A stretch of 64,000 bases of DNA from Tannerella sp. Lineage in GTDB: Bacteria > Bacteroidota > Bacteroidia > Bacteroidales > Tannerellaceae. Below, in pieces: positions 10,027-52,148 of this stretch; position 1 is the stretch's first letter, and the number at the start of each line of letters is the position of its first letter. The stretch spans positions 301-64,300 of the forward strand of contig JAISMO010000114.1 of the NCBI GenBank assembly GCA_031276675.1. The letters are read 5' to 3'. The translations under genes and the position numbers were made by a program. The notes beneath the pieces are model-generated. The model was not told where the DNA came from. It searched no databases and saw nothing but the letters and a program-made list of their open reading frames with translations.

Positions 10027-10250
10027 CGCCGCTCCGGGTTAACTCTGCGCCGCTCCGAGTTAACTCTGCGTGGCTCCGAGTTAACTCTGCGCCGCAAAAA
10101 CTTAACTCTGCGCGACGCAGACTTAACTCTGCGTCGCAAAAACTTAACTCTGCGTCGCTCCGAGTTAACTCGGAGTCACGCAGAGTTAACTCGGAGCGGC
10201 GCAGAGTTAACCCGGAACGATAAAAACTTAAGTCGGAATGGCGCAGGTTG
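10027..10250. repeat. tandem array A: ~10.5 x 21-bp units centred on GTTAAC/CTTAAC
   Basis: Units read in exact 21-nt register. There are six GTTAAC, three CTTAAC and one CTTAAG. It contains a perfect 40-bp inverted repeat (10033..10072 / 10177..10216) and an 18-bp perfect palindrome CTCCGAGTTAACTCGGAG (10158..10175). Confidence 0.95.
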
Positions 10251-10297
10251 AAAAATATTGCGCTCACAGTTAGCCACATACAGTTTCAACAGAAAAA

Positions 10298-10591
10298 TCA
10301 GATGGCTTTTTCTATGTCCCACATAAAGGCGTGCAGTCCCTGCGCCTGGTTTTCCAGGTCCAGGGTACGAAGCTGGGCAAGCAGGTCGTTGGCCCGATCG
10401 TCGGGGACAACGGTCAGCAGGGCTGAGTTCAGCGTTGGCCAGGCGTGGTTGCCGTAGTGCGGTTCGCCCGTGTGGTTGCCGCGTCCCTGCACTTCGTCCC
10501 ACAGGGTGAAGCCGCGGACATTCATCCGGTCGAGCAGGTCAATCAGGCGTTCCTTGAGCGCCTGATTGAAGGGTATGAAGATCGCTTTCAT
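10298..10591 (-). CDS. PG0541-family transporter-associated protein (small PII-like partner of RND pumps)
   Basis: A 97-aa product starting MKAIFIPFNQALKERL. Its start overlaps the RND stop by 4 nt. The track ORF extends spuriously to 11119. Confidence 0.8.
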   Translation of the reverse strand: MKAIFIPFNQALKERLIDLLDRMNVRGFTLWDEVQGRGNHTGEPHYGNHAWPTLNSALLTVVPDDRANDLLAQLRTLDLENQAQGLHAFMWDIEKAI

Positions 10592-13500
10592 TGTTTGGCG
10601 GATTTTTTCAGTTTGCCTTGTTTGAAGAGTTTGCGAATTTTTTTCCGGCGGCGTCGGACGCCGTTGGCGCCGAAGATGGAATACAGCGCCGGGACGTAGA
10701 ACAGGGTCAGCAGCGTGGAGAACGACAGTCCGGCAACGACGGCGATACCCATCGGCTGCCACATTTCCGAACCCGCTCCGCGCGGGATGGCCATCGGGAT
10801 CATGCCCAGTACCGTTGTGGCCGTCGTCATCAGGATCGGACGCAGACGCGAACGTCCTGCCGCAATGATGGCCTTGTCGATGGACATGCCCCGCTCTCGG
10901 TTCAGGTTGGCATAGTCGATAAAGACGATGCCGTTCTTCACCACGATGCCGATGAGCATCACGATACCGATCATGCTCATCAGGCTGACGGGCTTGCCGG
11001 TGAGCATCATGCCCAGCAGTACGCCGGCCAGTCCGAAGGTCAGCGAGAGCACGATGATGAACGGGTAGGTGAGCGATTCGAACTGCGCCGCCATGACGAT
11101 GTACACCAGGATGACGCACAGGATCATCAGCAGTCCCAGGTCGCTGTTACTTTCCTGCTGGTCTTCGTAGGATCCGCCGATGCGGATGCCGATTTCCGCC
11201 GGGAGACGTCCCTCGGCGCGCATGTCGGCAATGGCGCTTTCCGTATCCGCGACCACGTCGCTCAGGGCGGCGTTGTAGAGCGAGCCCTGCACCTTGTTCA
11301 CGCGCTGGCGGTTCTGACGGTCGATCTGGGGGAGCGTATTCCGTTCCACCACCTTGCCCAGCTCGCGGATGCGAATCGGTACGCCCTGTGAGTTGTAGAC
11401 CTGAATGTTCTCGATTTCTTCGATCGACTGGCGGTAGCGCTCGTCGTAGCGCACGACGATGTCATACTCGTCACCGTCTTCGCGGTATTTCGAGGTGTAG
11501 GAGCCGTTGATGCGGTTGCGTACATAGGTCGCAGCCGTGGCGGAGTTCAGTCCGTTCTCGGCCAGTTTCTCGCGGTCGAAGTCCACCTGATATTCGGTGC
11601 GGTAGTCCTGGCGGCTGATGACCAGGTCGCGCAGTCCCCGGACAGCGCCCAGGCGCGTTTTCAGTTCCGCTGCAATGGCGTCGGTCTGCGCCAGGTCGTG
11701 GCCGTAGATTTCCACCTCCATGTCGCTGGCGCCTGCGCCCATCATACCGCCGCTGCCGCCGGGGGTGATGGTGTACTTGTAGAGTTCGGGCATGTGCTCG
11801 AAGTCCTGTCGCAGGCCGTCGGCGATGTCGTAGATGCTGCGGTCGCGCTCGTCGGGTTCGGTGCAGCGCAGGCGGTAGGAAATGAGGTTGGTGGCATTGG
11901 CCTGCATGGCGGCAAAGGTGTTGTCGTCATCCGCCTGTCCCACGTCGAAGGAGCGCGTTTTGACTTCGGGATACTTGGCGCGAATCAGGCTGTCGATGTG
12001 CAGCGCCATGTCGCGCGCCACTTCCATCCGCGTGCCGGTAGGCATGTAGACCTCGGCCGTAATCATGCTGTTGTCGGAGGCGGGCATGAAGTCGAACTTG
12101 AGCAGCCCGACGGCCGGCGCCATGATGAGGAAGAAGGTGGAGAAGCAGACGAGCACCGTTTTCCAGCGGTTCCGGACGCAGCGGTTGACCACGCGGCCGT
12201 AAAAGGCGTCCAGGTTGTCCAGTCCTCTTTTCACCGGCTGATAGAGCCGGTCGAACATCCGCCCCTGCGTGGGGGTGAGCCGCAGCATCTGCGAGCAGAG
12301 CATGGGTGTGAGCGAAAGGGCGACGATGACCGAGACGGTCACCATGATGGTCACCATCCATCCCAGTACGCCGAACATGACGCCGGCCAGTCCGGTGGTC
12401 ATGGTCAGGGTGAAGAAGACGGCGATGATGGTCAGCGTCGAGGCAATCACGGCCACGCCCACTTCGTTGGTTGCGTAGATGGCTGCCTGGCGGGGCGAAC
12501 TGCCGCGTTCGATGTGCCGGGTGACGTTCTCGAGTACGACGATGGCGTCGTCGACCACCAGCCCGATGGCGATGGTCAGGGACGAGAGCGAGATGATGTT
12601 CAGGCTTCCTCCGGTAGCCATCAGGTAGATGAAGGAAGCGATCAGCGAAATCGGGATGGCCAGCACGATGATAATCGTTGCCCGCCAGCGTCCGAGAAAG
12701 AAGAGCACGACGAGCACGACGAAGATGATGGCCAGCAGGATGGTCTCGGTCAGTGAGTCGATGGATTCGCGGATGAAGTCGGACGAGTCCATCAGCAGGG
12801 TCAGCTGCACGTCGGGCGGGAGCGTCTGCTGCAGGCCGGGTATCAGCCGGTTGACCTTGTCGGCAATGGACACGGTATTGGCGCCCGACTGTTTCTGTAC
12901 GATGACGATAGCGCCCTTGACTTCGTTGGTATAGGCTTCCTGGATGCGGCTCTCGATGGTGTCGCTCACGGCAGCTACATCGCGCAGGTAGACGTTGCGC
13001 CCGCCGCGGCTGCCGACGACCACGTTCAGCAACTGTTCGCTGGCCTTGAACTCGCCTTCGATGCGCAGGGCGTAGGTTTCGGTGCCGATGTCGAAGCTGC
13101 CGGCCGGGACGTTCAGGTTTTCGGCCTGGATGATGGAGGCGATTTGTTCGACGGTCAACTGATAAGCCTCGAGTTTTTCGGGGGCGACGTTGACCTGTAT
13201 CTGCCGCTGCGGCGCGCCGGTCACGGTGACGGCGCCCACGCCCTCGACGCGGTTCAGCGGGTTGGCCACCTTCTCGTCCAGGATCTTGTAGAGCGCGTTG
13301 ACGTTCTCGCGCGCCGTGGCCGAATAGATGACCACGGGTATCATGTCCATGCTGAACTTGAAGATAAGCGGGTTGTTGATGGCGTCGGGCAGCGAGGAGC
13401 GTACCATGTCGATTTTGTCGCGCACGTCGTTGGTGGCGGCGTCGATGTCGGTGCCGTAGTTGAACTCGATGGTGACGAGCGACATGTTGTCCTTCGACTG

Positions 13501-13746
13501 CGAGGTGATCTCCTTGAGGTCTTCGACGGTGTTGAGCACGTCTTCCAGCGGCCGCGTGACGTTGGTCTCGATATCCGAGGCGCTGGCGCCGGGGTAGGCC
13601 GTGATGACGGTCAGCATGTTGGACTCGATGTCGGGAAAGAGGTCTATCGGCAGACGGGTAAAGGAGAAGAGGCCGATGATGGCCACGCCGATAAATATCA
13701 GCGCGGTCGTGACGGGTTTCTTGACTGCGGATGCATATAAGCTCAT
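10588..13746 (-). CDS. efflux RND transporter permease subunit (AcrB/HAE family)
   Basis: 1052 aa with 12-TM architecture and typical AcrB blocks (ALIFIGVAIIG, VVDDAIVVLEN, MLIGIVVKNGI). Confidence 0.97.
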   Translation of the reverse strand: MSLYASAVKKPVTTALIFIGVAIIGLFSFTRLPIDLFPDIESNMLTVITAYPGASASDIETNVTRPLEDVLNTVEDLKEITSQSKDNMSLVTIEFNYGTDIDAATNDVRDKIDMVRSSLPDAINNPLIFKFSMDMIPVVIYSATARENVNALYKILDEKVANPLNRVEGVGAVTVTGAPQRQIQVNVAPEKLEAYQLTVEQIASIIQAENLNVPAGSFDIGTETYALRIEGEFKASEQLLNVVVGSRGGRNVYLRDVAAVSDTIESRIQEAYTNEVKGAIVIVQKQSGANTVSIADKVNRLIPGLQQTLPPDVQLTLLMDSSDFIRESIDSLTETILLAIIFVVLVVLFFLGRWRATIIIVLAIPISLIASFIYLMATGGSLNIISLSSLTIAIGLVVDDAIVVLENVTRHIERGSSPRQAAIYATNEVGVAVIASTLTIIAVFFTLTMTTGLAGVMFGVLGWMVTIMVTVSVIVALSLTPMLCSQMLRLTPTQGRMFDRLYQPVKRGLDNLDAFYGRVVNRCVRNRWKTVLVCFSTFFLIMAPAVGLLKFDFMPASDNSMITAEVYMPTGTRMEVARDMALHIDSLIRAKYPEVKTRSFDVGQADDDNTFAAMQANATNLISYRLRCTEPDERDRSIYDIADGLRQDFEHMPELYKYTITPGGSGGMMGAGASDMEVEIYGHDLAQTDAIAAELKTRLGAVRGLRDLVISRQDYRTEYQVDFDREKLAENGLNSATAATYVRNRINGSYTSKYREDGDEYDIVVRYDERYRQSIEEIENIQVYNSQGVPIRIRELGKVVERNTLPQIDRQNRQRVNKVQGSLYNAALSDVVADTESAIADMRAEGRLPAEIGIRIGGSYEDQQESNSDLGLLMILCVILVYIVMAAQFESLTYPFIIVLSLTFGLAGVLLGMMLTGKPVSLMSMIGIVMLIGIVVKNGIVFIDYANLNRERGMSIDKAIIAAGRSRLRPILMTTATTVLGMIPMAIPRGAGSEMWQPMGIAVVAGLSFSTLLTLFYVPALYSIFGANGVRRRRKKIRKLFKQGKLKKSAKQ

Positions 13747-13764
13747 GATGTCTGTCGTTATGAA

Positions 13765-14793
13765 TTATTGAATGACCTGGACAGGGGTGCCGTCAATCAG
13801 GCGGGCATGTCCGGCAGTGACGATTTCATCGCCCGGTTCGATGCCCGAAAGGATTTCAAAGGATTCACCCAGCCGCTGTCCCGGTTCGACACGGCGGTAG
13901 CGGGCCATGCCGTTCTGCACGATGTAGACGTACTTGTCGTTGGCGCCGGCCTGTTTCTGCACGGCGACGTCGGGCACGACGACGCTCTCGCCCGCGCCGA
14001 AGTTGAGCGTCAGACGGGCATACATTCCCGGTCTCACTTTCATGTCGCGGTTGTGGATGGCCACCTCGACGCCGAACGTATGGCTGGCCGCGTCAACGGT
14101 CGGGTAGATGAGGCTGACCTTGCCGGTGAAGACTTCGCTGCCGTAGACGTCGAGCCGGATGTCGACCGGCATCCCGACGCGCACCTTGGTGAAATACGAT
14201 TCCGAGACGTTGATAATCACCTTCAGCAGGTTCAGCTGCTGGACGGTGAGGATGGGTTGCTGGGCAAAGACGTTGCCGTTGTCATAATTGCGTGCCGTGA
14301 CTACGCCGCCAATCGGGCTGCGCAGTTGCGTATTCTCCTCCAGGTTGCGGATGACCGCTTTGAGGACGTCGATTTGCGTCTTGATCTGGTCGACCTGCTG
14401 CTGGGCAATGCCGCCGACTTCGAGCAGCGCGCTGTAGCGTTCGTAGTCGCGTTCGAGATTGGCCAGCTGCGTCGTCTGCTGTTGCAGGTTCGACGATTCC
14501 ATCCGGACGAGCAGCTGGTCTTTTGCAACGCGGTCGCCGATTTCGACGTATATCTTCTCGATACGCCCGGGCATGGTGGGTGTGATGTGATTGATCACGT
14601 CGGCCTGTACGTTGCCGGTGTAGGTCACAACGTCGTTGACGGTCTGCAACTGGGCGACGGTCGTATGCACCTTCACACGCGTATCCGCCGTTGCCGTTTC
14701 GTTTGCCGCCTGCTCCCTGTTGCCGCCGCAGGCGGTCAGCGCGCCGGTGGCCAGGAGGAGTGCGATTCCTTTGAATACATTCTTTCGCTTCAT
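13765..14793 (-). CDS. efflux RND transporter periplasmic adaptor subunit
   Basis: Internal start MKRKNVFKGIALLLATGALTAC (lipoprotein signal), a coiled-coil hairpin region and beta-barrel domains. The track ORF extends to 15180 into tolC. Confidence 0.93.
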   Translation of the reverse strand: MKRKNVFKGIALLLATGALTACGGNREQAANETATADTRVKVHTTVAQLQTVNDVVTYTGNVQADVINHITPTMPGRIEKIYVEIGDRVAKDQLLVRMESSNLQQQTTQLANLERDYERYSALLEVGGIAQQQVDQIKTQIDVLKAVIRNLEENTQLRSPIGGVVTARNYDNGNVFAQQPILTVQQLNLLKVIINVSESYFTKVRVGMPVDIRLDVYGSEVFTGKVSLIYPTVDAASHTFGVEVAIHNRDMKVRPGMYARLTLNFGAGESVVVPDVAVQKQAGANDKYVYIVQNGMARYRRVEPGQRLGESFEILSGIEPGDEIVTAGHARLIDGTPVQVIQ

Positions 14794-14953
14794 GCTTGTA
14801 TAATTATTAATTGTCAGTGATGGATGGAGAAAAACCGTACCCTCCCGAAGTGTGCGGGGCTTCCCCGGCTCCCTGCCGGAGAAAAGCGCTGCTTCGGCGC
14901 AGCGGATTTTCTTCATCGATAGAAATTTATCATTTACCATAATCATTATATCC

Positions 14954-16450
14954 TCATTTTTCGTTCCAGTCTTCGAAGCCGAGCGTTTTATCAAGGTCGG
15001 CTTTGGAGGTGAGGAAGTTGTAGATGGCCTGGTTGAAGGCGAGGCTGGCCTGTGTGAGGCCAAGCTGCGCGTTGTTGAGGTCAAGCAGGGTTCCCATGCC
15101 GGTGTCGTAGAGTTTGCGCGAGATTTCGTAACCTTTCTGCGCCTGCGCCACGACGTCGCGGGTCGAGAGTACCTGTTCAACGTAGTTGGTCATGTTGTTG
15201 ATATTGTTGTTGATCGCCAGGCGAAGGTTGCGCACGACGTCTTCGCGCTGCCACTTCATCTGCTCGAGCGAGACGCGCGTCTGGCGTACGTCGTTGCGTT
15301 TCCTGAAGCCGTCGAAAAGCGGGATGGAGATGCTCAGTCCGATGGTCGAATAGGGGTTCCATCGGTAGTCGCCAAAGCGGAAATCATTGTTCATGGACAT
15401 GTACATGTAATTGCCCGTCAGCGCGATGGTCGGGTAGTACTGAGCCTTGTAGAGTTCGAGCGTTTTGCGGAGCTGCTCGTGCTGAAGGTCGAACTGCCGG
15501 AGGTCGGAGTTGTAAGCCAGCGAAGGGTCAACGGCGAGAATTTCGGCATACAGCCCCTCCTCGTAGTCGAGCAGGCTGCCCTTGACGGCAATGGCCTGAT
15601 CGATGTCGATGCCCATCAGCGCCTTGAGCGAAAGCATGGCGAGGTTGCAGGCATTCTCGGTCTGGATAAGGTCGGGCTTGATGTTTTTGACGTTGACGTC
15701 GGCGCGGATGAGGTCGAACTCGGAGACAAGTCCCTGCTGAAACTTGTCGCGGATGTTGTTATAGCTCAGGATCGCGTTGTTGTAGCTTTCCTGCAGCACG
15801 GCGCGGGCGTCCAGGGCCAGCAGCACGCCGTACCAGGCTTTGCGGACGGCGTTCACCATGTTGATTTTCGACGACCGGGCGCTCTCGACGGCCAGTTCGA
15901 CCTCAAGCCCGGAGATTTCGAGACTCTTCCAGAGCGCCGGCGCCACCACCGGCCAGTTGATGTTCACGCCGCCCGTCCAGTTGTTGTCGCGTCCGACGGC
16001 AATGCCCTCGTCGCCGGACGAAACCGGAGCCGGCGGCGTATTGGCGGCGATGTTCCGGGCAAGCGTGCCGGGAACGTAGCCGGGCGCCGTCTCGGCAAAC
16101 GTCTGTTCGGCTCCCCCCACAAGCGGCGCCATGATGGGGCTGAGCATCTCCTCCATGTTGAACGCGTTGTCCATGTACATGACCTGCTTTTTGAGCGTGC
16201 GGCTGTATTGCCCCACGGCATCAATCTGCGGGTAGAGGGAGGATTCACTCGACTTGCGTGCATACTTTTTCTTCTGTACCTCCAGATCGGCCACTCTGAC
16301 CGACGGGTTTTCGCTCAGCGCGATTTCAATGGCCTGCCCCAGGCGGAGCGCCAGCGTGTCCTGCACGCCTCCGACCGCCTGAAGCGGGACAAAAAGAAAC
16401 AGCCACATGAAGGCTGTCCCTGCCGTTTTCCTGTTTACTAACCGTATCAT
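14954..16450 (-). CDS. TolC family outer membrane efflux protein
   Basis: 498 aa with a signal peptide and two OEP repeats (LSLEQ..., LLDLNNAQL...). First structural gene after tetR. Confidence 0.92.
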   Translation of the reverse strand: MIRLVNRKTAGTAFMWLFLFVPLQAVGGVQDTLALRLGQAIEIALSENPSVRVADLEVQKKKYARKSSESSLYPQIDAVGQYSRTLKKQVMYMDNAFNMEEMLSPIMAPLVGGAEQTFAETAPGYVPGTLARNIAANTPPAPVSSGDEGIAVGRDNNWTGGVNINWPVVAPALWKSLEISGLEVELAVESARSSKINMVNAVRKAWYGVLLALDARAVLQESYNNAILSYNNIRDKFQQGLVSEFDLIRADVNVKNIKPDLIQTENACNLAMLSLKALMGIDIDQAIAVKGSLLDYEEGLYAEILAVDPSLAYNSDLRQFDLQHEQLRKTLELYKAQYYPTIALTGNYMYMSMNNDFRFGDYRWNPYSTIGLSISIPLFDGFRKRNDVRQTRVSLEQMKWQREDVVRNLRLAINNNINNMTNYVEQVLSTRDVVAQAQKGYEISRKLYDTGMGTLLDLNNAQLGLTQASLAFNQAIYNFLTSKADLDKTLGFEDWNEK

Positions 16451-16660
16451 TTCAATCTTACATTAAATTACAGCGGGTTCGCAGACCCGCATTATCCGTT
16501 TATCCCTTTTTGTTTTTTTCCTTTCTTTCTTTCAAAAACCGGTCGCTTCAGGCCGTCTTACACGTTCTTTTTTTACACCCTGTCCATGCGGACAACTGCA
16601 TGCGAAAAACAGTTTATACCTGACGGCGCATCACTCGGCACATCTCGCAGGACACGACGC

Positions 16661-17263
16661 CTACGGCCTGAACTGCTTTTTCACGCTGTAGCGTTCCAGC
16701 AGCTTCCGTCCGGCGTCGGTGCATATTCCGCGGATAAAAACAAGGAAGAGCGTATTGTGCACATCCGTGCGATTATACTTGCAGAACATTCCCGAAGGCT
16801 GTAGCATGTCCATTTGTTCGTGCGCCAGCAGGGCGATGATGTCGAAGTTGATATCGGGGCAGAAAACGCCTTCTCCTACACCCTTTTTCAACAGGCGCAT
16901 CGACATGTCCAGAAAATGCTGCCTGTTGCGCATTATGCATTCGCAGGCTTCCGGATAGCGCCGGATGTCCTGATAGAACTCCTCGCAGAACCGGACAGGC
17001 TGGCTCATCAGCTTCTCGTTGAAAAGAAGGAATATTTCCAGCGCCGTATACGTTTCCTTCGTCAGACGGGAGAGACACTCGCCGGCGCGGATGAAAAAAG
17101 TGTCGAGCATCTGCATGAGCAGCATTTCCTTGTCGTCGAAAAAACCATAGAGGGTACGTTTCGACACACCGGCCTTGCGGGCGATGTCGTCCATACTGAC
17201 CTTCCTGATGCCGCTACGGGCAAAGAGTTCGATCGTTATAGCGATGATATGTTCCTTCAACAT
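16661..17263 (-). CDS. TetR/AcrR family transcriptional regulator
   Basis: Internal start MLKEHIIAITIELFARSGIRKVSMDDIARKAGVSKRTLYGFF is a TetR HTH. The upstream extension of the track ORF crosses the promoter box. Confidence 0.9.
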   Translation of the reverse strand: MLKEHIIAITIELFARSGIRKVSMDDIARKAGVSKRTLYGFFDDKEMLLMQMLDTFFIRAGECLSRLTKETYTALEIFLLFNEKLMSQPVRFCEEFYQDIRRYPEACECIMRNRQHFLDMSMRLLKKGVGEGVFCPDINFDIIALLAHEQMDMLQPSGMFCKYNRTDVHNTLFLVFIRGICTDAGRKLLERYSVKKQFRP

Positions 17264-17268
17264 GCAAT

Positions 17269-17284: not shown

Positions 17285-17287
17285 CGG

Positions 17288-17537: not shown

Positions 17538-17588
17538 CCGGCGGTCGCCGACCGCCGGCATGGTAGGGGCGAAAAATTTTTCGCCCCT
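17538..17588. repeat. REP-like element family 1 (double hairpin)
   Basis: CCGGCGGTCG-C-CGACCGCCGG (17538..17558) plus the 24-bp perfect palindrome AGGGGCGAAAAATTTTTCGCCCCT (17565..17588). The palindrome and the neighbouring 12-mer GGTCGCCGACCG recur in inverted orientation at 28684..28733. Confidence 0.8.
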
Positions 17589-17642
17589 GCTCCGCATTTT
17601 TTTCATCACTTAACTGTATGGAGGAAAGTATGAATTATTTCG

Positions 17643-18320: not shown

Positions 18321-18324
18321 CATA

Positions 18325-25039: not shown

Positions 25040-27802
25040 ATGTTTTTGAAGCAAAGGGTACTGTGGGCGATCTGCCTGTCTGTCCTGGCGGTAACGGGAG
25101 GCATACAGGCTCAGGAAAATCTCCTGTCCGCAGATACGGCAAACGTTTCGGCAGCCGACGCAGGGCCGGAACGTTTGACGCATACCCGGCCGGATACGCT
25201 GGCAACCGGCCTCCCGGCGGTTCCGGATACGGCCGCCCGCAAGAAGGGAATGCTGGAAGCGCCGGTCGTTTATCAGGCCGGCGATTCCATTGTGATGACC
25301 TCCGACAACAAGGTCTACCTGTATGGACAGGGCGACGTGAAGTATCAGCAGATTCAGTTGCAGTCCGAAATCATTGAGATGAATGTAGACAGCAGCGTGG
25401 TATATGCCACTTATGCGGTGGATTCCACCGGCGCGGAGTTCGGCTATCCGCTTTTTGTGGATGGCGAGCAGCAGATTGAGGCCAAAACAATGCGCTACGG
25501 CTTCAAGTCCCGGAAGGCCTATGCCCGGGAAGTGCTGACCCAGCAGGGGGAAGGGTTCCTGATTGCCGGACAGACGAAAAAAATGCCGGACAATGCCATG
25601 AACATGCTCGACGGAAAATATACCACATGCGACGATCACGACCATCCGCATTTCTACATCCGGATGACCCGGGCCAAGGCGCATCCGGGGAAAAACATCG
25701 TCACAGGGCCGGCTTACCTGGTGATAGAAGACGTGCCGCTCTATCTGCTGGGATTGCCGTTTGCCTTCTTTCCCTTTACCAGCACCTATTCTTCCGGTAT
25801 CATTATGCCGACCTACGGCGACGAGATGCGGCAGGGCTTCTTTCTGCGCGACGGCGGCTATTATTTTGCCCTGAGCGATTATGTCGACCTCTCGGTCACC
25901 GGCGAAATCTATACAAAAGGCTCATGGGGGCTTTCCGCACGTTCCACCTACCGGAAGCGCTACAAGTATTCGGGAAACTTCAACGCCTCCTACCAGGTGA
26001 CCAAGTGGGGCGACAAGGGCATGGACGATTATTCGCTCTCCAAAGCCTTCAAAGTCAACTGGACGCACACCCAGGACGCCAAGGCCAATCCTTACCGCAC
26101 CTTCTCGGCCAACGTGAACTTCTCCACCAGCCAGTACGACCACAACAACATCAGGCAGCAGGCTTCGCTCGACGCCACGCAGAACAACAAGGGATCAAGC
26201 GTAAGCATCAGCCAGCGTTTTCCCGACAACCCGCTCTCCCTCTCGGCCACGATGAACATCAACCAGCGTTCACAGGACTCGTCCCTGTCGGTCACGCTGC
26301 CGGACGTGACGCTGACCATGAGCCGCATCTACCCCCTGAAACGCAAAAATGCCGTCGGACAGGACCGCTGGTACGAAAAGATTTCCATGAGTTATTCCGG
26401 TTACCTGCGCAACAGTCTTACGGCCAAGGAAAACGAGTTCTTCGGGAAAAGCCTTGTCAAGGACTGGAAAAATGCCATGCAGCATACGATTCCCATCAGC
26501 GCCACCTACACGGCATTCGGATACCTGAACATTTCGCCCTCCGTGCAGTATCAGGAACGGTGGTATACAAACCGGATTCACCAGGCCTACGACACGACGC
26601 TTCACCGGCTGGCGCCGACAGATACCTCCTACGGTTTCTATCGCGTATATAACTACAACGCATCGCTGTCGGCCTCGACCACCCTCTACGGGATGTACGA
26701 GTTCTGGCCCGTCTTCCGAAAGTGGATACGGACGGTACGTCACCGGATGGAGCCGTCCGTCAGTTTCAGCGCCACACCCGATTTCGGCGATCCGCGCTAC
26801 GGCTATCACCTGCCCTATACCTATACCGACGCGCAGGGCCGCCCGGTCGAAGGCGTTTACTCGCCCTACCAGCATCAGCTGTTCGGCGTACCCGGACGGG
26901 GAAAACAGGGTAATATCTCCTTCGGCCTGGAAAACAATATCGAAGCCAAGGTGGCCTCGAAAAGAGATTCGTCGGGACTGGCCAAAATCAGCCTGATCGA
27001 CAACCTGTCGCTCCGCATGAGCTATAACCTGGCCGCCGATTCGTTTCAGTGGAGCGACCTCTCGGCCGGGATCCGCCTGAAGCTGAGCAAAAGCTATACC
27101 CTGAACCTCTCCGGCGCGTTTGATACCTATACCTACGCATACGACGAAACCACCGGCGCCGTCCGGCGGGTCAACCTCCCGCGATGGAAAGCCGGCAAGG
27201 GCATCGGACGGCTGAGGGGAACCAGTTCCAGCTTTTCCTACACCTTCAACAATGCCACCTTCACCCAGTGGTTCGGTTCAAAAGACGGTCGGGAGGGAAG
27301 CGAGCCGGACGCCGATCGCCCGGAAGAAGAAGAGGACGAAAGCAATGCCGCCGGACCCGAAGCGCCGGCAGCGGGCACGCGCCTGCGACAGGAAAAAAAA
27401 ACGCAGACGGGCGAATATGACGACGACGGATATTATAACGCGAATGTGCCGTGGAGCCTGTCCTTCAGCTACAACCTGGGCATGGCCTACGGCGCCTTCA
27501 ACCCCAAAAAGCTGGAATACGACTACCGCTTCACGCACGCCCTGAGCTTCAACGGAAATATCCAGCCTACCAAATACTGGCGCATCACCTTCAATGCAAG
27601 CTACGATTTCGAGATGAAAAAGATTTCTTACATGACCTGCAACGTCTCCCGCGATCTGCACTGTTTCCAGATGTCGGCCAGCATCATCCCCGTCGGCTAC
27701 CGGAAATCCTATTCCTTCTCGATCGCTGTCAACTCTTCGCTGCTGAAAGACCTGAAATACCGGCAGAGCAGCAGCTTCCAGAGCGGTCAGACATGGTATT
27801 GA
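25040..27802 (+). CDS. lptD: LptD/OstA-like outer membrane LPS assembly protein
   Basis: 920 aa with a signal peptide, an OstA-like N-terminal region, a long beta-rich aromatic-terminated body and a C-terminal ...SGQTWY. Confidence 0.8.
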   Translation: MFLKQRVLWAICLSVLAVTGGIQAQENLLSADTANVSAADAGPERLTHTRPDTLATGLPAVPDTAARKKGMLEAPVVYQAGDSIVMTSDNKVYLYGQGDVKYQQIQLQSEIIEMNVDSSVVYATYAVDSTGAEFGYPLFVDGEQQIEAKTMRYGFKSRKAYAREVLTQQGEGFLIAGQTKKMPDNAMNMLDGKYTTCDDHDHPHFYIRMTRAKAHPGKNIVTGPAYLVIEDVPLYLLGLPFAFFPFTSTYSSGIIMPTYGDEMRQGFFLRDGGYYFALSDYVDLSVTGEIYTKGSWGLSARSTYRKRYKYSGNFNASYQVTKWGDKGMDDYSLSKAFKVNWTHTQDAKANPYRTFSANVNFSTSQYDHNNIRQQASLDATQNNKGSSVSISQRFPDNPLSLSATMNINQRSQDSSLSVTLPDVTLTMSRIYPLKRKNAVGQDRWYEKISMSYSGYLRNSLTAKENEFFGKSLVKDWKNAMQHTIPISATYTAFGYLNISPSVQYQERWYTNRIHQAYDTTLHRLAPTDTSYGFYRVYNYNASLSASTTLYGMYEFWPVFRKWIRTVRHRMEPSVSFSATPDFGDPRYGYHLPYTYTDAQGRPVEGVYSPYQHQLFGVPGRGKQGNISFGLENNIEAKVASKRDSSGLAKISLIDNLSLRMSYNLAADSFQWSDLSAGIRLKLSKSYTLNLSGAFDTYTYAYDETTGAVRRVNLPRWKAGKGIGRLRGTSSSFSYTFNNATFTQWFGSKDGREGSEPDADRPEEEEDESNAAGPEAPAAGTRLRQEKKTQTGEYDDDGYYNANVPWSLSFSYNLGMAYGAFNPKKLEYDYRFTHALSFNGNIQPTKYWRITFNASYDFEMKKISYMTCNVSRDLHCFQMSASIIPVGYRKSYSFSIAVNSSLLKDLKYRQSSSFQSGQTWY

Positions 27803-27898: not shown

Positions 27899-28100
27899 TC
27901 TGATCGGGTGTGTGCCGTCTTCGGGCTACGGAGGTTGTTTTGCAGGGAAAATAAGGTGAAAATGAGGTTTTATCGTTGCCTGTCCAACAGGAGGGGCTGT
28001 GATATGCTATTGATTTTTCATCCCTCAAAATCAAAATCCCAGTCTTCACAGTTGTTTATTTTTAAATTGAATACATCCGTATGAAGCGGCTTGGTCGGTA

Positions 28101-28215
28101 CAGACAAAGGGTCTTTGACCGAGCGGACAAAGGGTCTTTGACCGGACGGACAAAAGGTCTTTGTCCGGGCGGACAAAAGGGCTTTGTCTGAACGGACAGG
28201 GTGTTGGGCGAAAGG
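28101..28215. repeat. tandem array B: ~5 x 23-bp units (CGGACAAAGGGTCTTTGACCGAG-type)
   Basis: The units are 28101-28123, 28124-28146, 28147-28169 and 28170-28192, plus a degenerate fifth. Unit 3 holds 8-bp inverted arms CGGACAAA / TTTGTCCG. Confidence 0.9.
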
Positions 28216-28380
28216 TGCGTGGCGGGTACGCGGACGATTGGTCGCAATCTCTTTGGCTTCCAGTCGATGGATGATGTCCTCTTCGTGAAGCGTACCCTTG
28301 ATTTCGGGCAACAGGTAATAATCGTTCGCTGTTTCTTCGGTCAGCTTATTCAGGTGAGCAATTGTTTTTAATACAGTCAT
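28216..28380 (-). pseudogene. N-terminal remnant of an HU-like / DUF4469 DNA-binding protein
   Basis: MTVLKTIAHLNKLTEETANDYYLLPEIKGTLHEEDIIHRLEAKEIATNR resembles the opening ~50 aa of Bacteroidales DUF4469 / histone-like proteins (as recalled). The rest of track ORF 28018..28380 is translated array B. Confidence 0.35.
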
Positions 28381-28669
28381 AAGGCTTTAATTTTAGAGTG
28401 AATATTATGGAATAAACAGAATCATCAACAAGGGGGAAAGCGAGGGTTCGCCCCTGCAGTAAGGGGCAGCTTGCCTCCGGATGGGCAGGCTAATGACTGT
28501 TGAAAATCAGGAATGTGTAATCGACTGTTGTTTATGGGAACTGCCATTTTTACTGTTGTTTTACAGGAACCGATGCAAATGTAATGCATTTACTCAGTTA
28601 TCCAAAATTTAAGGAACGATAAAAGGATGCCGACAGGCTGCAAGTCCTGCCCTTCGGGGCAGCCGTGGT

Positions 28670-28733
<64 letters not shown>

Positions 28734-28873
28734 TTGAAAGGCAGGACACCGACAGGCTGCAAGTCTGCCTCCCGCGCGGTCAACCGATTGAATTTCACGA
28801 TTCCGGTATAGATTTCGTTGATCGTTTGCGCTTTTTTTTGTTTTTCCCGACTTCCGTTTGATGAAGTTATGCC

Positions 28874-36568: not shown

Positions 36569-36686
36569 AGAGCTGTTTTCTGATTGAACAAATTTCCAAA
36601 GGAAAATATTTTGCGATATTTTCTCTTCCACAAAAATTGAATCGTATATTGACAGTGAAATGAGTGGATTTGCTTCGATTCGGGAG

Positions 36687-36755
36687 GCTTGGACGCCTCG
36701 GCCCAACATGCTTGGACGTCCCGACCCAACGGGTTTGGGCGCCTCGGTTCAAAAA
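36687..36755. repeat. tandem array D: 3 x 23-bp units
   Basis: GCTTGGACGCCTCGGCCCAACAT / GCTTGGACGTCCCGACCCAACGG / GTTTGGGCGCCTCGGTTCAAAAA. Short inverted arms are present (GAGGC..GCCTC, CCCAA..TTGGG). Confidence 0.8.
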
Positions 36756-36885
36756 GCCTTCGCCGGAGCAAGGCGCTTCCGCTTCTACCCTGTTCCGACC
36801 GTCGGCGATCCGAGGGTTATGAAAATAGCGTCCCGCAGGGAATTTGCGGCAGGCAAACCACTCTATTATAGGCTGCGAAGCATAC

Positions 36886-45048: not shown

Positions 45049-45069
45049 GCAGGCAGGTATCCGGGTTTT

Positions 45070-47085
<2,016 letters not shown>

Positions 47086-47291
47086 TTATTCTCAAAAAGC
47101 GAACAAATATAGTAATTATTTTTAGATCGGGAAAATCTCCTGAAGGAAAGGGGCAGAGGCAGATTCAGGTAGCGAATGCAATTTTTCTAAAGAATCTGTC
47201 TTGAGGGGGAATCAACACCAGGCAATTTTCCCGGTTTTCGATTCATTTTGTTTTAACGGTTTGTTATAAGCCCAAAATGTCCATTAGGAAC

Positions 47292-47400
47292 ATTAATTCA
47301 CTCATGCTACGCAGTATCCGGACTTATCCCTCGCAGACAAAGCCGCCCGATTGCCTGTGCATTGAGGCTGCCCGACGGATGCCGCGTAACATGAGTTAAT
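47292..47400 (-). other. ~109-nt imperfect long hairpin immediately 3' of the T9SS esterase gene (structured RNA, complex terminator or REP)
   Basis: The outer arms are ATTAACTCATG / CATGAG(TGA)ATTAAT. The 14-bp inner arms are UUACGCGGCAUCCG / CGGAUACUGCGUAG. Read on the minus strand they give 2 G-U pairs and 1 mismatch; on the plus strand, 1 G-U and 2 mismatches. Confidence 0.3.
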
Positions 47401-47414
47401 AACAAAGAAATCCG

Positions 47415-48638
47415 CTATCGTTTAATCAATTTCGCTGTCCGGACAGTCCCGTTCGACCGGATGCAAATAATGTACGTTCCCGGTTTCAGAGACGAGATAT
47501 CCAATTGTCCGGCGCTGAACGGAGCAGATAGCATTTCCTTTCCCGTGAAGTCATAAATCGAAACAAGTCCATTCATCACTCCAAAATAAATCCGGCTGTA
47601 AGCAGGATTGGGATATACGGCAAGGTATTGTTCCGGAAGCAACTTAATTCCCTCCGAACGCGGCGAAGCGTGCGAGGTGATGAATTTCGTGATTTCCTCC
47701 AGGTAATCCATGCAGTCGCCTGCTTCTTTCCGGAAGAAATAGTTGTGATTCGAGCCGTTTATCTGATAGTGTATGACCTCATATTCCGGATGCGGATAGC
47801 TGATTTTTTCGACCGTAATACCATTTGTTGAAGGATAATAACTGATGTTTTCCGTCACCGGTGCACCCGCGCCGTTGGTTTGCACCCAATAGCGGAGCAC
47901 ATCCTGTTTGGGCTGAGCCAGGTGAACCGTGATTCCGGGCTGTTCGGTCGAACCGGTATAGGGAACGACTTCATCCGTCAGGCTGTGAAAATCGCAGACC
48001 GGCACTTTCATTCCGTTTCCCATTCCCTGAATGTTCAATCCCATCGAACCGACAATGGAAACCATGCCAGCCAGCTTCACAGGCTGTTTCAGCGCAAACT
48101 GATAGGCCATGTAACCTCCCATCGAAGTACCGACCATGAAGATGTTTTCGGATTTCAACGCAAATTCTTCCAGTGTCTGCCGGATAATTAAACGGATAAA
48201 TTCCATATCATCCACCTGTCTGTTCAATTCATCATCCAGCAACAGAATATTTCCCAGGTTCATAACGGCTTTGACTTTCAATCCGCAACTCCAGACTGCA
48301 CGGAGGAAAAGCTTGTTTCCGGTGATGAAACTGATCATCGCCGCCTTGTCAATCAGGCTCTGACTTTGTTCGGGTAAAGCCTGTGGCGCAACAATCAAGT
48401 AGTTAAGTGAATCTGCTATTTTGTAAATGGGATAGCCGTCGAAAAAATCCTCCATGGTACTGTTAAGTCCATGCAGACAGACAATCAAACCCTCCGGACG
48501 GGAACGGGAATTTTCAGGCGTATAAACCAGATATTCCCGTTCGAACTCCCCTGACCGAACCTGCTTTTTTACCGGATTTGCAGCCATCACACCGGCAGCA
48601 GCCAGACAGAACACTGTTATTATTAAGATTCTCTTCAT
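47415..48638 (-). CDS. secreted alpha/beta-hydrolase (esterase/PHB-depolymerase-like) with T9SS C-terminal sorting domain
   Basis: Start MKRILIITVFCLAAAGVMA (signal) and the nucleophile elbow GTSMGG. The C-terminal ~70 aa (VYPNPAYSRIYF...LKPGTYIICIRSNGTVRTAKLIKR) is a Por/T9SS CTD. Confidence 0.85.
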   Translation of the reverse strand: MKRILIITVFCLAAAGVMAANPVKKQVRSGEFEREYLVYTPENSRSRPEGLIVCLHGLNSTMEDFFDGYPIYKIADSLNYLIVAPQALPEQSQSLIDKAAMISFITGNKLFLRAVWSCGLKVKAVMNLGNILLLDDELNRQVDDMEFIRLIIRQTLEEFALKSENIFMVGTSMGGYMAYQFALKQPVKLAGMVSIVGSMGLNIQGMGNGMKVPVCDFHSLTDEVVPYTGSTEQPGITVHLAQPKQDVLRYWVQTNGAGAPVTENISYYPSTNGITVEKISYPHPEYEVIHYQINGSNHNYFFRKEAGDCMDYLEEITKFITSHASPRSEGIKLLPEQYLAVYPNPAYSRIYFGVMNGLVSIYDFTGKEMLSAPFSAGQLDISSLKPGTYIICIRSNGTVRTAKLIKR

Positions 48639-48770
48639 TTTATATCTATAACGGTTTAACATAAAGCGACTTTGAAAAGGCAATCTTCCGGTACTGTGAA
48701 ACTCGCCCGGTCAAATCGAATGCTGTTGCTCTTTTCCATACATCACTGTTTCCATGCCTGTGAAACCCTG

Positions 48771-48778
48771 CAAAGATA
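48771..48778 (-). promoter_or_regulatory. -7 promoter box (TATCTTTG on minus strand)
   Basis: Plus-strand CAAAGATA, 133 nt upstream of the esterase ATG at 48638 (long leader). Confidence 0.4.
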
Positions 48779-48908
48779 ATATTATATAGCGCTTTGCACA
48801 AAAAAATGCCTGTTTTATATCTGAATGATTGTCGATCATTGATGCAAGTTGTGTTTCCCTATCAATCAAAAAAGGACTTACGGTAAAAAGTATGTCCTTT
48901 TTTGGGTG

Positions 48909-48983
48909 TGGGCGTTGACGGATTCGAACCGCCGACCCTCTGCTTGTAAGGCAGATGCTCTGAACCAGCTGAGCTAAACGCCC
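48909..48983 (-). tRNA. tRNA-Val (anticodon TAC)
   Basis: Hand-folded from the reverse complement: GGGCGTT-TA-GCTC..GAGC-A-TCTGC-CTTACAA-GCAGA-GGGTC-GGCGG-TTCGAAT-CCGTC-AACGCCC-A. Confidence 0.9.
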
Positions 48984-49014
48984 TTTGTGATTGCTTTCTT
49001 TGTGAAAAGCAGCG

Positions 49015-49022
49015 CAAAGATA
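49015..49022 (-). promoter_or_regulatory. -7 promoter box (TATCTTTG on minus strand)
   Basis: Plus-strand CAAAGATA, 32 nt upstream of the tRNA-Val 5' end. Confidence 0.5.
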
Positions 49023-49132
49023 ATGCTTATTTTTGAATATGCAATGCTGATGCCGAAAAAACCGTTTCCTCGGAGAATTATTCTTTGCACCCGTCAGAAA
49101 AAAATGAACGCCATGTCGGCAGAAGTCACCTT

Positions 49133-50425
49133 TCATTTGATTTGTTTTCCTGTGAGTAACCATTTCAGTTCTGTAAAATCTTCCCTTGAAGGAAGCAATT
49201 CATGCAGGGAGGTGTGCGTCCGGCGGACAAAAACGATCAGCGAAAACAGCAGCATGACCGAGAAAGCAATACTGGTCGACACGGCCGAACCAAGTACGCC
49301 ATGCACCGGCACCAGCAAACTGCCGGAAATCAGCAGCGCCACCAACCCCACACACGAACAGGCCGTACTGTATTTCACTTTCCCTGTTCCGATAAAATAA
49401 TGGCTCAGGATGTTGTTGGCGCCAAACATGACGACCCCGACCGAAAGTCCCCCGATCACCTTCCGGATGCCCCGAAACTCAGTCGTAAACAGGTAATCGG
49501 TAAAGATCCGCTCGGGGATCAGCAGGATCACACCCGTCACTGCCAGGAGGGCGCAATAGGTCCATTTGAAGAAACGGAGCGTTTGTTGCCGTTGCATTTC
49601 CGGGTCGGATGTCCTGGCCACCTGGCTGTAGGAGATGGCGCTAACACTCCGGTTGATGTGCCAGACGCTTTCGGAGATGCGTGCGCCGGCATCGAATAAC
49701 CCTACCTGTCCGTAACCGCTCAAGCGCTGTAACAGAAAGTAATTCAGCCGTGCCGTCAGGCCTTCCGTCAAGTTGTCCGCGCTGCTCCACAGGCCGTAGA
49801 CAAACATTTTGCTCCACAGGCGGAAGGGAGGCGGCAGGGCGGCGGGCAGCGGTTTTTTTTCGCGCCGGATGCATGCCACCGGATATAAAAACAGCAGACT
49901 CACAAACCAGGCAAGGGCTGTCGAGAGGTACACTCCCCACAGGTAACCTTCCACATCCTGCTTTCCCGCAATGTAATACACATACGGTAAAATAACGAAC
50001 AGGCTTCCTCCCTGAATCATAAACGTTGCATTGAATGCCTTGACACGGTCTTTACCCAGCAGAACGCGCGAATGAATCCCCACCAGCGACAACAGCGTTG
50101 CCAGCCCGTATACTTCCGCGCCGAAGCCCGCCGGCAACATGCCCGTCAGCGCCATTGCGCCGCAGGCAATCGCCGAGCCGGCAAAGGCCCATACATACGC
50201 AGGAAGGAAGACATAACGCAGGGGATAACGGTTCAGGTGATAGACAATGGTGTTTCCGCAAAACACACCGTTAAACAGGAAAACAATGTTTGCCGAGGCA
50301 TAGATCACACCGGCCACTCCCATGCCGTGAATGCCCAGCGCTTTGCCGTTGATGAAAATCAGCATCAGATTCAATGCCGCCACCACATAGCGCGTGGCAA
50401 TCGTTTCCAGTACTTTTTTTAACAT
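49133..50425 (-). CDS. MOP/Wzx-like polysaccharide flippase
   Basis: Start MLKKVLETIATRYVV...; about 12-14 hydrophobic segments in a ~430-aa protein. The track ORF extends to 50539. Confidence 0.75.
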   Translation of the reverse strand: MLKKVLETIATRYVVAALNLMLIFINGKALGIHGMGVAGVIYASANIVFLFNGVFCGNTIVYHLNRYPLRYVFLPAYVWAFAGSAIACGAMALTGMLPAGFGAEVYGLATLLSLVGIHSRVLLGKDRVKAFNATFMIQGGSLFVILPYVYYIAGKQDVEGYLWGVYLSTALAWFVSLLFLYPVACIRREKKPLPAALPPPFRLWSKMFVYGLWSSADNLTEGLTARLNYFLLQRLSGYGQVGLFDAGARISESVWHINRSVSAISYSQVARTSDPEMQRQQTLRFFKWTYCALLAVTGVILLIPERIFTDYLFTTEFRGIRKVIGGLSVGVVMFGANNILSHYFIGTGKVKYSTACSCVGLVALLISGSLLVPVHGVLGSAVSTSIAFSVMLLFSLIVFVRRTHTSLHELLPSREDFTELKWLLTGKQIK

Positions 50426-50438
50426 CCCCCTGCTCCGT

Positions 50439-51674
50439 TCAGTCGCGATGCTGCATCTGCACATCCTCCTCGCTATAGTCCTGATAGAGGAAGTCATTGT
50501 AAGGAAAACGCCGGACGTGAATCTCCCGTACCCGCTCATAAAGCAGCGATTTCAGCCCGTCAATGTTTACCCGCTCCCTTGCCGAGAGAAAGATGCACTG
50601 CTCCGGCAGTTTCGCCATCCAGGTTTCCTGCAGTTCGTTCAGCGGGATATTTTCCCGCACGCGCGGCGTAAGGTCATCTTCTTCTTTGGGAATAAACGTG
50701 AAAGCGTCTATCTTGTTGAATACGATGAGTACCGGCTTTTCCTTGCAGTCAATTTCGACCAGCGTCCTGTGGACCACTTCGATCTGTTCTTCAAACGAAG
50801 GATGCGAGATGTCGACGACATGCAGCAGCAGGTCGGCTTCGCGCACTTCGTCCAGCGTGGACTTGAAGGACTCTACCAGTTCGGTTGGCAGTTTGCGGAT
50901 AAATCCGACCGTGTCGGAGAGCAGGAAAGGCAGGTTGTCGACAATCACCTTACGCACCGTCGTGTCCAGCGTGGCAAACAGCTTGTTTTCGGCAAAGACT
51001 TCGCTTTTGCTCAGCAGCGTCATCAGCGTCGATTTCCCGGCGTTCGTATAGCCGACCAAGGCCACGCGCACCAGTTTGCCGCGGTTCCTGCGCTGAGCCG
51101 ATTTCTGGCGGTCGATCTCGACCAGTTCGCGTTTCAGCCGGGCAATCCGCTCCAGGATGATGCGCCGGTCGGTTTCCAGCTGCGTCTCGCCCGGTCCGCG
51201 CATGTGGATACCGCCACGCTGCCGCTCGAGGTGCGTCCAGAGCCGCGTCAGCCGGGGCAGCATATACCGGTATTGAGCCAGTTCGACCTGCGTTTTGGCA
51301 TGTGCCGTCTGCGCCCGGCGGGCAAAGATGTCGAGAATCAGGTGGGTACGGTCCAGAATCCGTACCTGCAGCACCTTTTCAATGTTGCGCAGCTGTTTGG
51401 CCGACAGTTCATCGTCAAAAATCACGGTTCCAATATCGTTTTCCGTCACATATTCATGGATCTGCTGCAGTTTGCCCGTCCCGACAAAGGTGGCCGCGCA
51501 GGGCATGTCCAGCCGCTGGTAAAACTGCCTGACCGGTTCCAGGCCGGCCGTCTCGGCCAGAAAAGCCAGTTCGCCCACATATTCCCTGGCCTGCCTCTCG
51601 TTTTGTCCGGGCATGATCAGCCCTATCAGCACGGCCTTTTCCGTACGTTCTTCCGTAATAATAAATTCTTTCAT
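50439..51674 (-). CDS. hflX: GTPase HflX
   Basis: The HflX N-domain (ELAFLAETAG), G1 GYTNAGKST, G3 DTVGF and G4 NKID. Confidence 0.95.
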   Translation of the reverse strand: MKEFIITEERTEKAVLIGLIMPGQNERQAREYVGELAFLAETAGLEPVRQFYQRLDMPCAATFVGTGKLQQIHEYVTENDIGTVIFDDELSAKQLRNIEKVLQVRILDRTHLILDIFARRAQTAHAKTQVELAQYRYMLPRLTRLWTHLERQRGGIHMRGPGETQLETDRRIILERIARLKRELVEIDRQKSAQRRNRGKLVRVALVGYTNAGKSTLMTLLSKSEVFAENKLFATLDTTVRKVIVDNLPFLLSDTVGFIRKLPTELVESFKSTLDEVREADLLLHVVDISHPSFEEQIEVVHRTLVEIDCKEKPVLIVFNKIDAFTFIPKEEDDLTPRVRENIPLNELQETWMAKLPEQCIFLSARERVNIDGLKSLLYERVREIHVRRFPYNDFLYQDYSEEDVQMQHRD

Positions 51675-51693
51675 GCGCTACCTGTTTGCAGCG

Positions 51694-51701
51694 CAAAAGT
51701 A
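51694..51701 (-). promoter_or_regulatory. -7 promoter box (TACTTTTG on minus strand)
   Basis: Plus-strand CAAAAGTA, 20 nt upstream of the hflX ATG at 51674. Confidence 0.55.
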
Positions 51702-51938
51702 AGCAATATTCGGCGATTTCCCGGCAGGCCTCAGCAGGAGGGTACATTTCAAAGGTCGCAGCCCGGACACGGATGAAGTGCGGTGCGCCTTTACAGTTCA
51801 TCCGCCCCGGAGGTGCGGGATGGCGGGGTGAGACCCGGAACAGCCTCCCTCCGTGCGGCAGCAGACAGCGTCTGTTTTGGCATCACTCCCTGTTTTCCGG
51901 AACAGGATCCGGACAAAACCGGGGAGAAAAACGGAAAA

Positions 51939-52148
51939 ATGCTTCTTCCTGTCGGCAGAACCGCAAAAACGGACGGATTCATGCTTCTGCCGAGCGGCAG
52001 AACCGCAAAAATGGGCAAAATCATACTTCGTACCAGCGGCAGAAGCATAAAAACGACGATTTTCATGCTTCGTACCAGCGGCAGAACCGCAAAAAAACGC
52101 GGAAACACGATTCTGCCGCAAGTATGAAGCATAAAAACAAAAATAAAC
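51939..52148. repeat. tandem array C: ~5 x 42-bp units
   Basis: The units are 51939-51980, 51981-52022, 52023-52064 and 52065-52106, plus a degenerate fifth. The conserved core is CGGCAGAACCGCAAAAA. Unit 2 carries the inverted arms TTCTGCCG-AG-CGGCAGAA. Confidence 0.9.

Follow-up and report, generated by a model that had tools for sequence, protein, structure and literature searches.

We analyzed a 64-kb stretch of chromosome (positions 1–64,000; hereafter the window) from a termite-gut Tannerellaceae bacterium, which carries four intergenic tandem repeat arrays, here called A, B, D, and C in their order along the sequence. By Pfam scan of its large open reading frames (ORFs), the window is ordinary housekeeping chromosome. 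It encodes an OEP-HlyD-AcrB-P-II efflux operon with a TetR gene upstream, his genes, LptD, aconitase, isocitrate dehydrogenase (IDH), and citrate synthase, together with RecO, thioredoxin, MiaB, GyrB, HflX, methionyl-tRNA synthetase (MetRS), and a DEAD-box helicase. One TetR and one MarR are the only regulators, and the scans of all large ORFs in the window found no cas, rep, transposase, integrase, or AraC/hybrid two-component system (HTCS) genes. Array A lies 48 nt past the stop codon of the last gene in the efflux operon, which is P-II-like (10298–10591, minus strand), and 216 nt upstream of the start of a GT2 gene (9811). Array B sits in a non-coding stretch of ~1 kb between LptD (plus strand, ending at 27802) and aconitase (plus strand, starting at ~28858). 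Array D is 131–139 nt downstream of the MiaB stop codon (36886, minus strand), and array C occupies the divergent spacer between hflX and an M28-peptidase gene, where it stands no less than 238 bp upstream of the promoter of hflX.

When applied to the whole window, Tandem Repeats Finder (TRF) returned four non-coding arrays of the 21–23/42-bp class and no others: A at 10027–10231 (21 bp × 8.8, 79% matches; ten units by eye, to ~10250), B at 28103–28198 (23 bp × 4.2, 87%), D at 36685–36747 (23 bp × 2.7, 72%; the weakest of the four), and C at 51931–52095 (42 bp × 3.9, 75%). A separate repeat search resolved C as five copies spaced by 42 bp over 51897–52137. A preliminary description of this DNA had listed the same four arrays, and these were confirmed by TRF, unit searches, and shuffle controls.

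Table 1. Coordinates of the arrays and associated features in the window
Feature	Position	Strand	Description
U6 tract, putative terminator	10019–10024	−	A6 on the plus strand; read from sequence
Array A	10027–10250		Ten 21-bp units, TTAACTCNGNG-NNNN-(TCCGAG / GCAGAG / AAAAAC)
Array A quasi-palindrome, left arm	10033–10087		2.6 units; 54/55 complementary to 10162–10216
Array A quasi-palindrome, right arm	10162–10216		Mirror of left arm
Array B	28101–28215		~4.2–5 units of 23 bp, GGACAAARGGTCTTTGWCCG + 3-nt linker
Array D	36685–36755		~2.7–3 degenerate 23-bp units
hflX promoter −7 box, Bacteroidetes-type, conserved	51694–51701	−	TACTTTTG; alignment with Tannerella sp. metagenome-assembled genome (MAG) loci L161–L163
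Array C, direct part	51939–52106		Four 42-bp units: 23-nt core ATGCTTC..GCGGCAGAAC + A-rich 19-nt tail
Array C, terminal inverted core copy	52108–52137		Pairs with last direct unit (52060–52089)

All four consist of head-to-tail units within the 10- to 100-bp range of bacterial non-coding minisatellites, repeated beyond chance, and all lie outside genes that have homologues. Each unit core is confined to its own array within the 64 kb, with 0–0.3 matches expected by chance. The four array spacers have only 12- to 17-nt matches in common, which is chance level, and no common unit or flank; nor do the units of A–D recur in more than 160 related loci. The four arrays are therefore confirmed as real non-coding minisatellites with locus-specific units. 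That the units are unrelated between loci, and so not one dispersed repeat, had been proposed at the outset and was borne out in the window and the related loci, as was the placement of the arrays outside recognizable genes and without unique spacers or cas genes; a 120-aa frame that crosses B has no match in Pfam or NCBIfam.

The arrays belong to a class that is found across the order. We scanned 2.39 Mb of exclusively Bacteroidales DNA, comprising the window, 80 genome loci, and 80 metagenome loci that were fetched via the AcrB and P-II neighbors of array A (individual related loci are given below as L numbers). Non-redundant TRF arrays of at least 2.5 copies had periods of 7 bp (51 arrays), 21 bp (6), 22 bp (17), 23 bp (14), and 40–42 bp (3); other periods of 15 bp or more were scattered singletons only, and none fell at 24–39 bp. 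Outside long ORFs in the first 1.5 Mb, the counts were 3, 13, and 7 for 21, 22, and 23 bp, respectively. Stricter TRF scoring gave the same picture of periods, with one array in the shuffled control, and an independent lag-autocorrelation scan found periods of 7 bp (8), 21–23 bp (8), and 40–42 bp (8), with none at 24–39 bp and none in the shuffle. Markov-shuffled DNA held 0–1 arrays of period 19 bp or longer per 2.4 Mb. Among the lineages with arrays are Bacteroides, Parabacteroides, Phocaeicola, Muribaculaceae, and others from termite guts, and no two loci have the same unit sequence. Because the periods cluster at 21–23 and 40–42 bp while the units are unrelated, the recurrent class is real and not noise. 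The preliminary description had suspected a recurrent process or a functional class, and this is supported by both detectors, in which periods of at least 19 bp peak at these two lengths.

Some 42-bp units in the sample are two diverged 21-bp subunits (L163 and L165). The unit of array C had likewise been described as 2 × 21 bp; we found no internal 21-bp similarity in it. The closest relatives of the window, Tannerella sp. MAGs (L161–L165), carry ~6 arrays in 43 kb, compared with 4 in 64 kb in the window itself, and one of these arrays fills the whole of a 75-bp convergent spacer.

The companion 7-bp class is AT-rich, and its heptamer also differs per locus (AAAATTG, AATTATG, AAGAATT, AATCACT, and others). 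These arrays often take the form of an array followed by an inverted array, giving long hairpins in intercistronic or 3′ spacers, and they occur at sites where other species carry 21- to 23-bp arrays or plain terminators (for example, L005 13473–13613, L054 and L050 in the AcrB to P-II spacer, L166 4525–4608, L085, and L097). None was found in the window at a TRF score of at least 50. Cyanobacterial short tandemly repeated repetitive (STRR) sequences are short tandem heptanucleotides in non-coding DNA, often hairpin-capable, with a few common heptamers per genome. They resemble this 7-bp class and not the 21- to 23-bp units, and the Bacteroidales heptamers differ from them in varying by locus; the term STRR is used in PMC5088731.

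Aligned in register, most arrays of the 21–23/40–42-bp class show a conserved core of ~14–16 bp and a variable stretch of ~6–8 bp, and in many, though not all, of them the core is self-complementary. Self-complementarity more often takes the form of a run of direct units facing one inverted unit at the end than that of a hairpin within each unit. Such inverted end units pair at 16/16 positions in L016, 19/19 in L051, 24/24 in L072, 32/36 in L028, and 23/27 in array C of the window. Columns predicted to be paired are less variable than unpaired columns (Wilcoxon p = 0.012). In an array that is orthologous across species (L017 and L024), the GAAAC/GTTTC stems are kept and the loops have changed. 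Approximately 55 metagenomic loci from one human-gut Parabacteroides-like species (L099–L160) have an invariant ATGCCCAT core, with single-nucleotide polymorphisms in the variable part; copy number is nearly fixed among them, with one locus lacking exactly two units (46 bp) and three differing at one end. The near invariance of this array, together with the conservation between L017 and L024, argues that these are not hypervariable contingency loci.

Array A is the most highly structured of the four. It is a 190-bp quasi-palindrome with a 74-bp center, and the pairing between its arms (54/55) takes in the variable 4-mers; by an alternative measure, it has 95-nt arms with 84% complementarity and 0 nt between them. 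The variable part occurs in three forms only. The whole array folds as RNA at −160.1 kcal/mol on the minus strand (z = −17.8) and −152.1 kcal/mol on the plus strand (z = −17.2), and the hairpin at the level of the unit is also strong (z = −4.0). On the sense (minus) strand, the closing stem is followed by 1 nt and then U6 (...GGAGCGGCGU-G-UUUUUU). Array A therefore has the anatomy of an intrinsic terminator, with a GC-rich stem and a U tract within 0–2 nt on the sense strand past the operon end. It differs in size, as its stem of ~90 bp is built from ten 21-bp repeats and intrinsic terminators usually have stems of 5–15 bp. Array A has only sub-threshold matches in Rfam, to miRNA-precursor hairpin families at chance level, and none of the four arrays matches any Rfam family at the gathering or E-value thresholds.

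The same position is occupied by terminator-like structures in related species. Directly past the P-II stop codon, L003, L008, L009, L011, L012, L013, and L169 carry a single GC-rich hairpin with a T-run, and L005, L166, and L168 carry long hairpins formed by inverted heptamer arrays. In L170, the post-P-II spacer is 580 bp long and contains repeated 5-, 7-, 8-, and 10-mers and a 23/24-bp × 6.4 array with a palindromic core. Based on the stem and U6 tract on the sense strand and on the terminators of relatives at the same position, array A is best read as a hypertrophied, repeat-built intrinsic terminator or 3′ stabilizer of the efflux operon, an activity that we infer from its sequence. Repetitive extragenic palindromic (REP) elements, the bacterial interspersed mosaic elements (BIMEs) that contain them, and REPINs of Proteobacteria are likewise intergenic hairpins, often at 3′ ends or between cistrons, and have been proposed as mRNA stabilizers and attenuators of read-through. 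REPs differ from the arrays in forming one dispersed family per genome, with a REP-associated tyrosine transposase (RAYT) and alternating orientation, whereas the arrays are locus specific and have a fixed period.

Two further observations concern the surroundings of array A. Contigs of close relatives (L166–L168, L171, and L172) end 50–380 bp past the P-II gene, in or near the repeat-built spacer, which suggests that the arrays break short-read assemblies. The G+C content of the window is 0.41–0.49 over positions ~1–10000 and 0.58–0.61 thereafter, and the step at ~10 kb coincides with array A; there are housekeeping genes on either side, and this is not obviously an island boundary.

How such arrays arise was examined in the AcrB to P-II spacer, which varies among Parabacteroides and other Tannerellaceae species, several of which have no hairpin there. 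In P. leei (L015), the spacer contains one 21-nt hairpin, CCGGGAAC-N5-GTTCCCGG. In P. segnis and P. goldsteinii (L026 and L027), it contains a 23-bp array (× 2.8 by TRF) with a related GGGAAG/CTTCCC hairpin and with flanks similar to those of L015. Inverted pairs of heptamer arrays form long hairpins in the same spacer in L020, L050, and L054. In the human-gut Parabacteroides-like species, the 23-bp array lies within the loop of an older hairpin that is intact in a sister species (L045). The similarity of the flanks to those of a single-hairpin allele points to a stem-loop, or one arm of it, having grown in situ, and not to insertion.

These comparisons suggest a mechanism in which a pre-existing intergenic stem-loop, or one arm of it, would be copied repeatedly in situ through replication slippage. 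Template switching within the strand, as in quasi-palindrome correction, could then keep the arms complementary or make them so. The outcome would be either a series of direct units that ends in an inverted one, as in array C, or a whole mirrored array, as in A, and the product in either case would be a long composite stem-loop. Both hairpin-stabilized slippage and quasi-palindrome template-switch mutagenesis are established mechanisms.

In array C, the inverted end gives 30-nt arms with 83% complementarity (25/30; the 23/27 above is by another measure), and the array folds with z = −7.2 and −7.0. A promoter-like TATTTTTG at ~52141 had raised the possibility that C was an hflX leader; this was dropped because alignment places the conserved promoter at 51694–51701. 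Segments beside that promoter (51701–51745) recur beyond array C (52252–52348) with their order swapped, one over 26 nt at 73% and the other over 18 nt at 89%, and they may record a rearrangement from which the long divergent spacer arose.

Array D is located just beyond a weak hairpin with U5 on the sense strand, and no stem with a U tract spans the array. Its unit-level hairpin has z = 0.0, and the fold of the whole region is marginal (z = −2.1). A 16-nt motif, GGTTATGAAAAT(R)GCG, is common to 9891–9906 and 36815–36830, on the plus strand in both cases, at distances of ~90–120 bp (array A) and ~60 bp (array D), and a looser likeness follows it (CAGGG...GGCAG). The motif might be what is left of a regulatory sequence or element that both sites once had, or it might be a product of chance.

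The fold of array B is of moderate strength (z = −6.7 for the minus strand, −3.9 for the plus strand), and the unit hairpin has z = −0.9. There is no U tract after the array as a whole, and no stem plus U tract spans it. The 120-aa ORF noted above (28018–28380, minus strand) starts 165 nt upstream of the array and reads through it. It has no match in Pfam or NCBIfam and probably represents either a spurious frame or what is left of a gene; in relatives, too, ORFs are called across arrays (L163 10149–10454). The ~1-kb spacer is unusually rich in repeats. It includes a REP-like perfect palindrome of 28 bp, GTAGGGGCGAAAAATTTTTCGCCCCTAC, at 28673–28700, with a near-copy 11 kb away at 17551–17588 (50 nt, 86%). 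This palindrome begins with GTAG and ends with CTAC, as in RAYT-associated REPs, and it is dispersed and distinct from the arrays. A direct repeat, CCGACAGGCTGCAAGTC..., at 28628–28653 and 28748–28775, brackets it.

No role can be demonstrated for arrays B, C, and D, which the genome may simply tolerate as by-products of the amplification described above; unlike A, they lack terminator anatomy or position. Overall, we favor, with roughly even confidence, the reading that the four arrays are locally amplified stem-loop minisatellites of a quantized Bacteroidales class, with A serving as a terminator.

Several observations weigh against this reading. A unit-level hairpin with z of about −2 or lower was found in 8 of 26 arrays, and it was strictly below −2 in 6; the earlier description of the units as hairpin-capable therefore holds only in part, and the unit-level hairpin was rejected as a defining feature of the class. 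The individual inverted repeats that had been quoted for A–D all exist, being strong in A, perfect only in unit 3 of B and unit 2 of C, and present in D in unit 1 only. Array C, given the conserved hflX promoter at 51694–51701, is neither a terminator nor a transcript leader. Across the class, arrays occupy co-directional (~12), convergent (2–3), and divergent (4) spacers with no clear bias. In L086, a perfect 40-bp × 2.8 array has a hairpin with T5 that is antisense to both neighboring genes, for which reason the idea that it is a triplicated terminator was dropped. The occurrence of arrays in all spacer types and the antisense array of L086 make one function for all arrays unlikely. Lastly, the core palindromes span 12–21 nt, and some arrays lack a hairpin altogether, yet the period stays at 21–23 bp. 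Unit length is therefore not set by the size of the hairpin, and neither this nor plain slippage explains the 21- to 23-bp ruler. Two helical turns are the obvious reading of such a ruler.

An unlikely explanation, though one to be taken seriously, is that the arrays are purely neutral minisatellites, products of slippage that is biased in this lineage. None of the four would then have a function, and A would simply have grown on a terminator. Arrays do occur in every type of spacer and turn over quickly at the same site between related species, and their density in termite-gut DNA is very high, both in the window and in its relatives. The degeneracy of D (72% matches) and the position of B, in a 1-kb stretch with other repeats and an unsupported ORF, also fit neutrality. 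However, variation is concentrated at certain positions of the unit while cores and stems are held, including across species in L017 and L024, and copy number is nearly fixed over the ~55 loci of one species. Array A keeps a well-placed U tract and the 54/55 complementarity of its arms, and neutral slippage predicts no 21- to 23-bp ruler.

The ruler itself could reflect a dedicated Bacteroidales process or constraint by which arbitrary intergenic stem-loops become arrays with quantized units of 7, 21–24, and 40–42 bp; the last two lengths correspond to about two and four helical turns. We regard this as doubtful at present. One candidate would be a replisome or repair step in which the slip length is fixed; another would be a structure-recognizing, sequence-independent protein that binds, or spaces the units, every two turns.

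Sequence-specific protein binding is an improbable source of the ruler. Here each unit would be a two-turn site, for an AraC/HTCS double helix-turn-helix or for a dimer on a palindrome, and the footprint of a cooperative filament would set the spacing. Quantization at 21–23 and 40–42 bp that is independent of sequence and hairpin length is expected from a protein or helical ruler, a conserved core with a variable linker fits protein sites, and array C does lie between divergent promoters. Plasmid iterons are commonly ~22 bp apart. Iterons and AraC/HTCS half-sites resemble the arrays as direct repeats at about two helical turns, and in Bacteroides, HTCS regulators bind tandem half-sites ~21–22 bp apart (PMC13292587), which fits the array spacing and keeps a protein ruler in contention. 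The preliminary description had accordingly likened the arrays to iterons and cooperative operators, a comparison for which we found no support. The unit differs at each array, so each would need its own protein, and the window encodes TetR and MarR only, with no AraC/HTCS or rep gene. The arrays also lack an AT-rich unwinding element; DnaA boxes have two matches in the 64 kb, neither near an array, and no array core recurs near promoters in the window, including those of the TetR and MarR genes. Furthermore, orthologous sites carry unrelated units, plain terminators, or heptamer hairpins, and most arrays in the sample lie just past stop codons and not at promoters; A, B, and D in the window are likewise not at promoters.

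Mobile elements of the kind known from Porphyromonas gingivalis are the closest described relatives of these arrays in form, and a very improbable explanation of them. [quoted passage not shown] PgRS/MITE464 of the same species carries 41-nt repeats, and the W83 genome paper, as cited in PMC4596501, reports 22-, 23-, and 41-nt tandem direct repeats. The statement in the preliminary description that no described feature class in Bacteroidales accounts for the arrays was thus mistaken. Both sets come from Bacteroidales, fall into the same two classes of unit length, and are spacerless and intergenic, with conserved and variable parts and stem-loops; the core of array B, GACAAAGGGTC, is also loosely like the terminal inverted repeat (TIR) of BrickBuilt_12, GACAAAGGTCTC. 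On the mobile explanation, the arrays would be minisatellites within MITEs (miniature inverted-repeat transposable elements) mobilized by insertion sequences of the IS5 type, with a leader, a tail, TIRs, and many dispersed copies. BrickBuilt and PgRS are indeed such elements, each a single sequence family present ~10–20 times per genome. In contrast, each array here has its own unit, with no common flanks, TIRs, or dispersed copies in the 64 kb of genome and the 160+ loci. Matches like the IS5-type TIR GAGACCTTTGCA numbered 5 in the window against 5.0 expected, none of them at an array edge. The window encodes no transposase, and the flanks of the Parabacteroides arrays are shared by a single-hairpin allele. 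In the literature searched, we found no description of an order-wide class of locus-specific arrays; the arrays here are a locus-specific, non-MITE version of the BrickBuilt/PgRS kind.

We give almost no credence to guide-RNA-type arrays (degenerate clustered regularly interspaced short palindromic repeats [CRISPR], TIGR-like, or other), in which the 6–8 variable bases would be a mini-spacer: the layout of conserved core and variable segment fits, but CRISPR arrays combine 23- to 47-bp repeats with unique spacers and usually cas genes, whereas a 21- to 23-bp period leaves no room for a spacer and is below any CRISPR repeat plus spacer, the window has no cas or effector gene, the variable part of A has three forms only, arrays are mirrored or have inverted ends, and Rfam matches are at chance level.

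Beyond the arrays, the window (+ strand, 3818–3897) encodes a Bacteroidetes small RNA of the FopS family (RF04319), which scores 61.9 bits where the gathering score is 56. Coding repeats at 1619–1892 (144 bp × 1.9 plus a 21-bp repeat, specifying acidic stretches of EYEEDED type) lie within a 673-aa ORF (274–2295, plus strand) that has no Pfam or NCBIfam match. In protein searches, the best match to HflX was 92% identical, in "Tannerella sp." MAGs, and the best to P-II 84%; upstream of hflX, synteny with these relatives is not kept. AcrB is 72–80% identical to homologues in termite-gut Dysgonamonadaceae and "Azobacteroides" MAGs, and an exact-protein look-up with the AcrB homologue gave no match. 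The genome and metagenome scans gave top matches of 80% for AcrB and 69% for P-II, with no close relative among them.

In the termite-gut Tannerellaceae lineage, there is about one array per 7–16 kb. The arrays give rise to spurious ORF calls (28018–28380 in the window and 10149–10454 in L163) and may shape the formation of operon 3′ ends. If the quantization holds, BrickBuilt and PgRS of P. gingivalis would become a mobilized special case of an order-wide phenomenon. If a ruler process is at work, the arrays would be a feature of genome architecture at the level of the phylum, similar in abundance to REP elements and made locally instead of by transposition. Should the quantization extend genome-wide, the non-coding tandem repeats of a major gut order would be held to strict lengths irrespective of sequence, and such a rule would point to a mechanistic or structural ruler.

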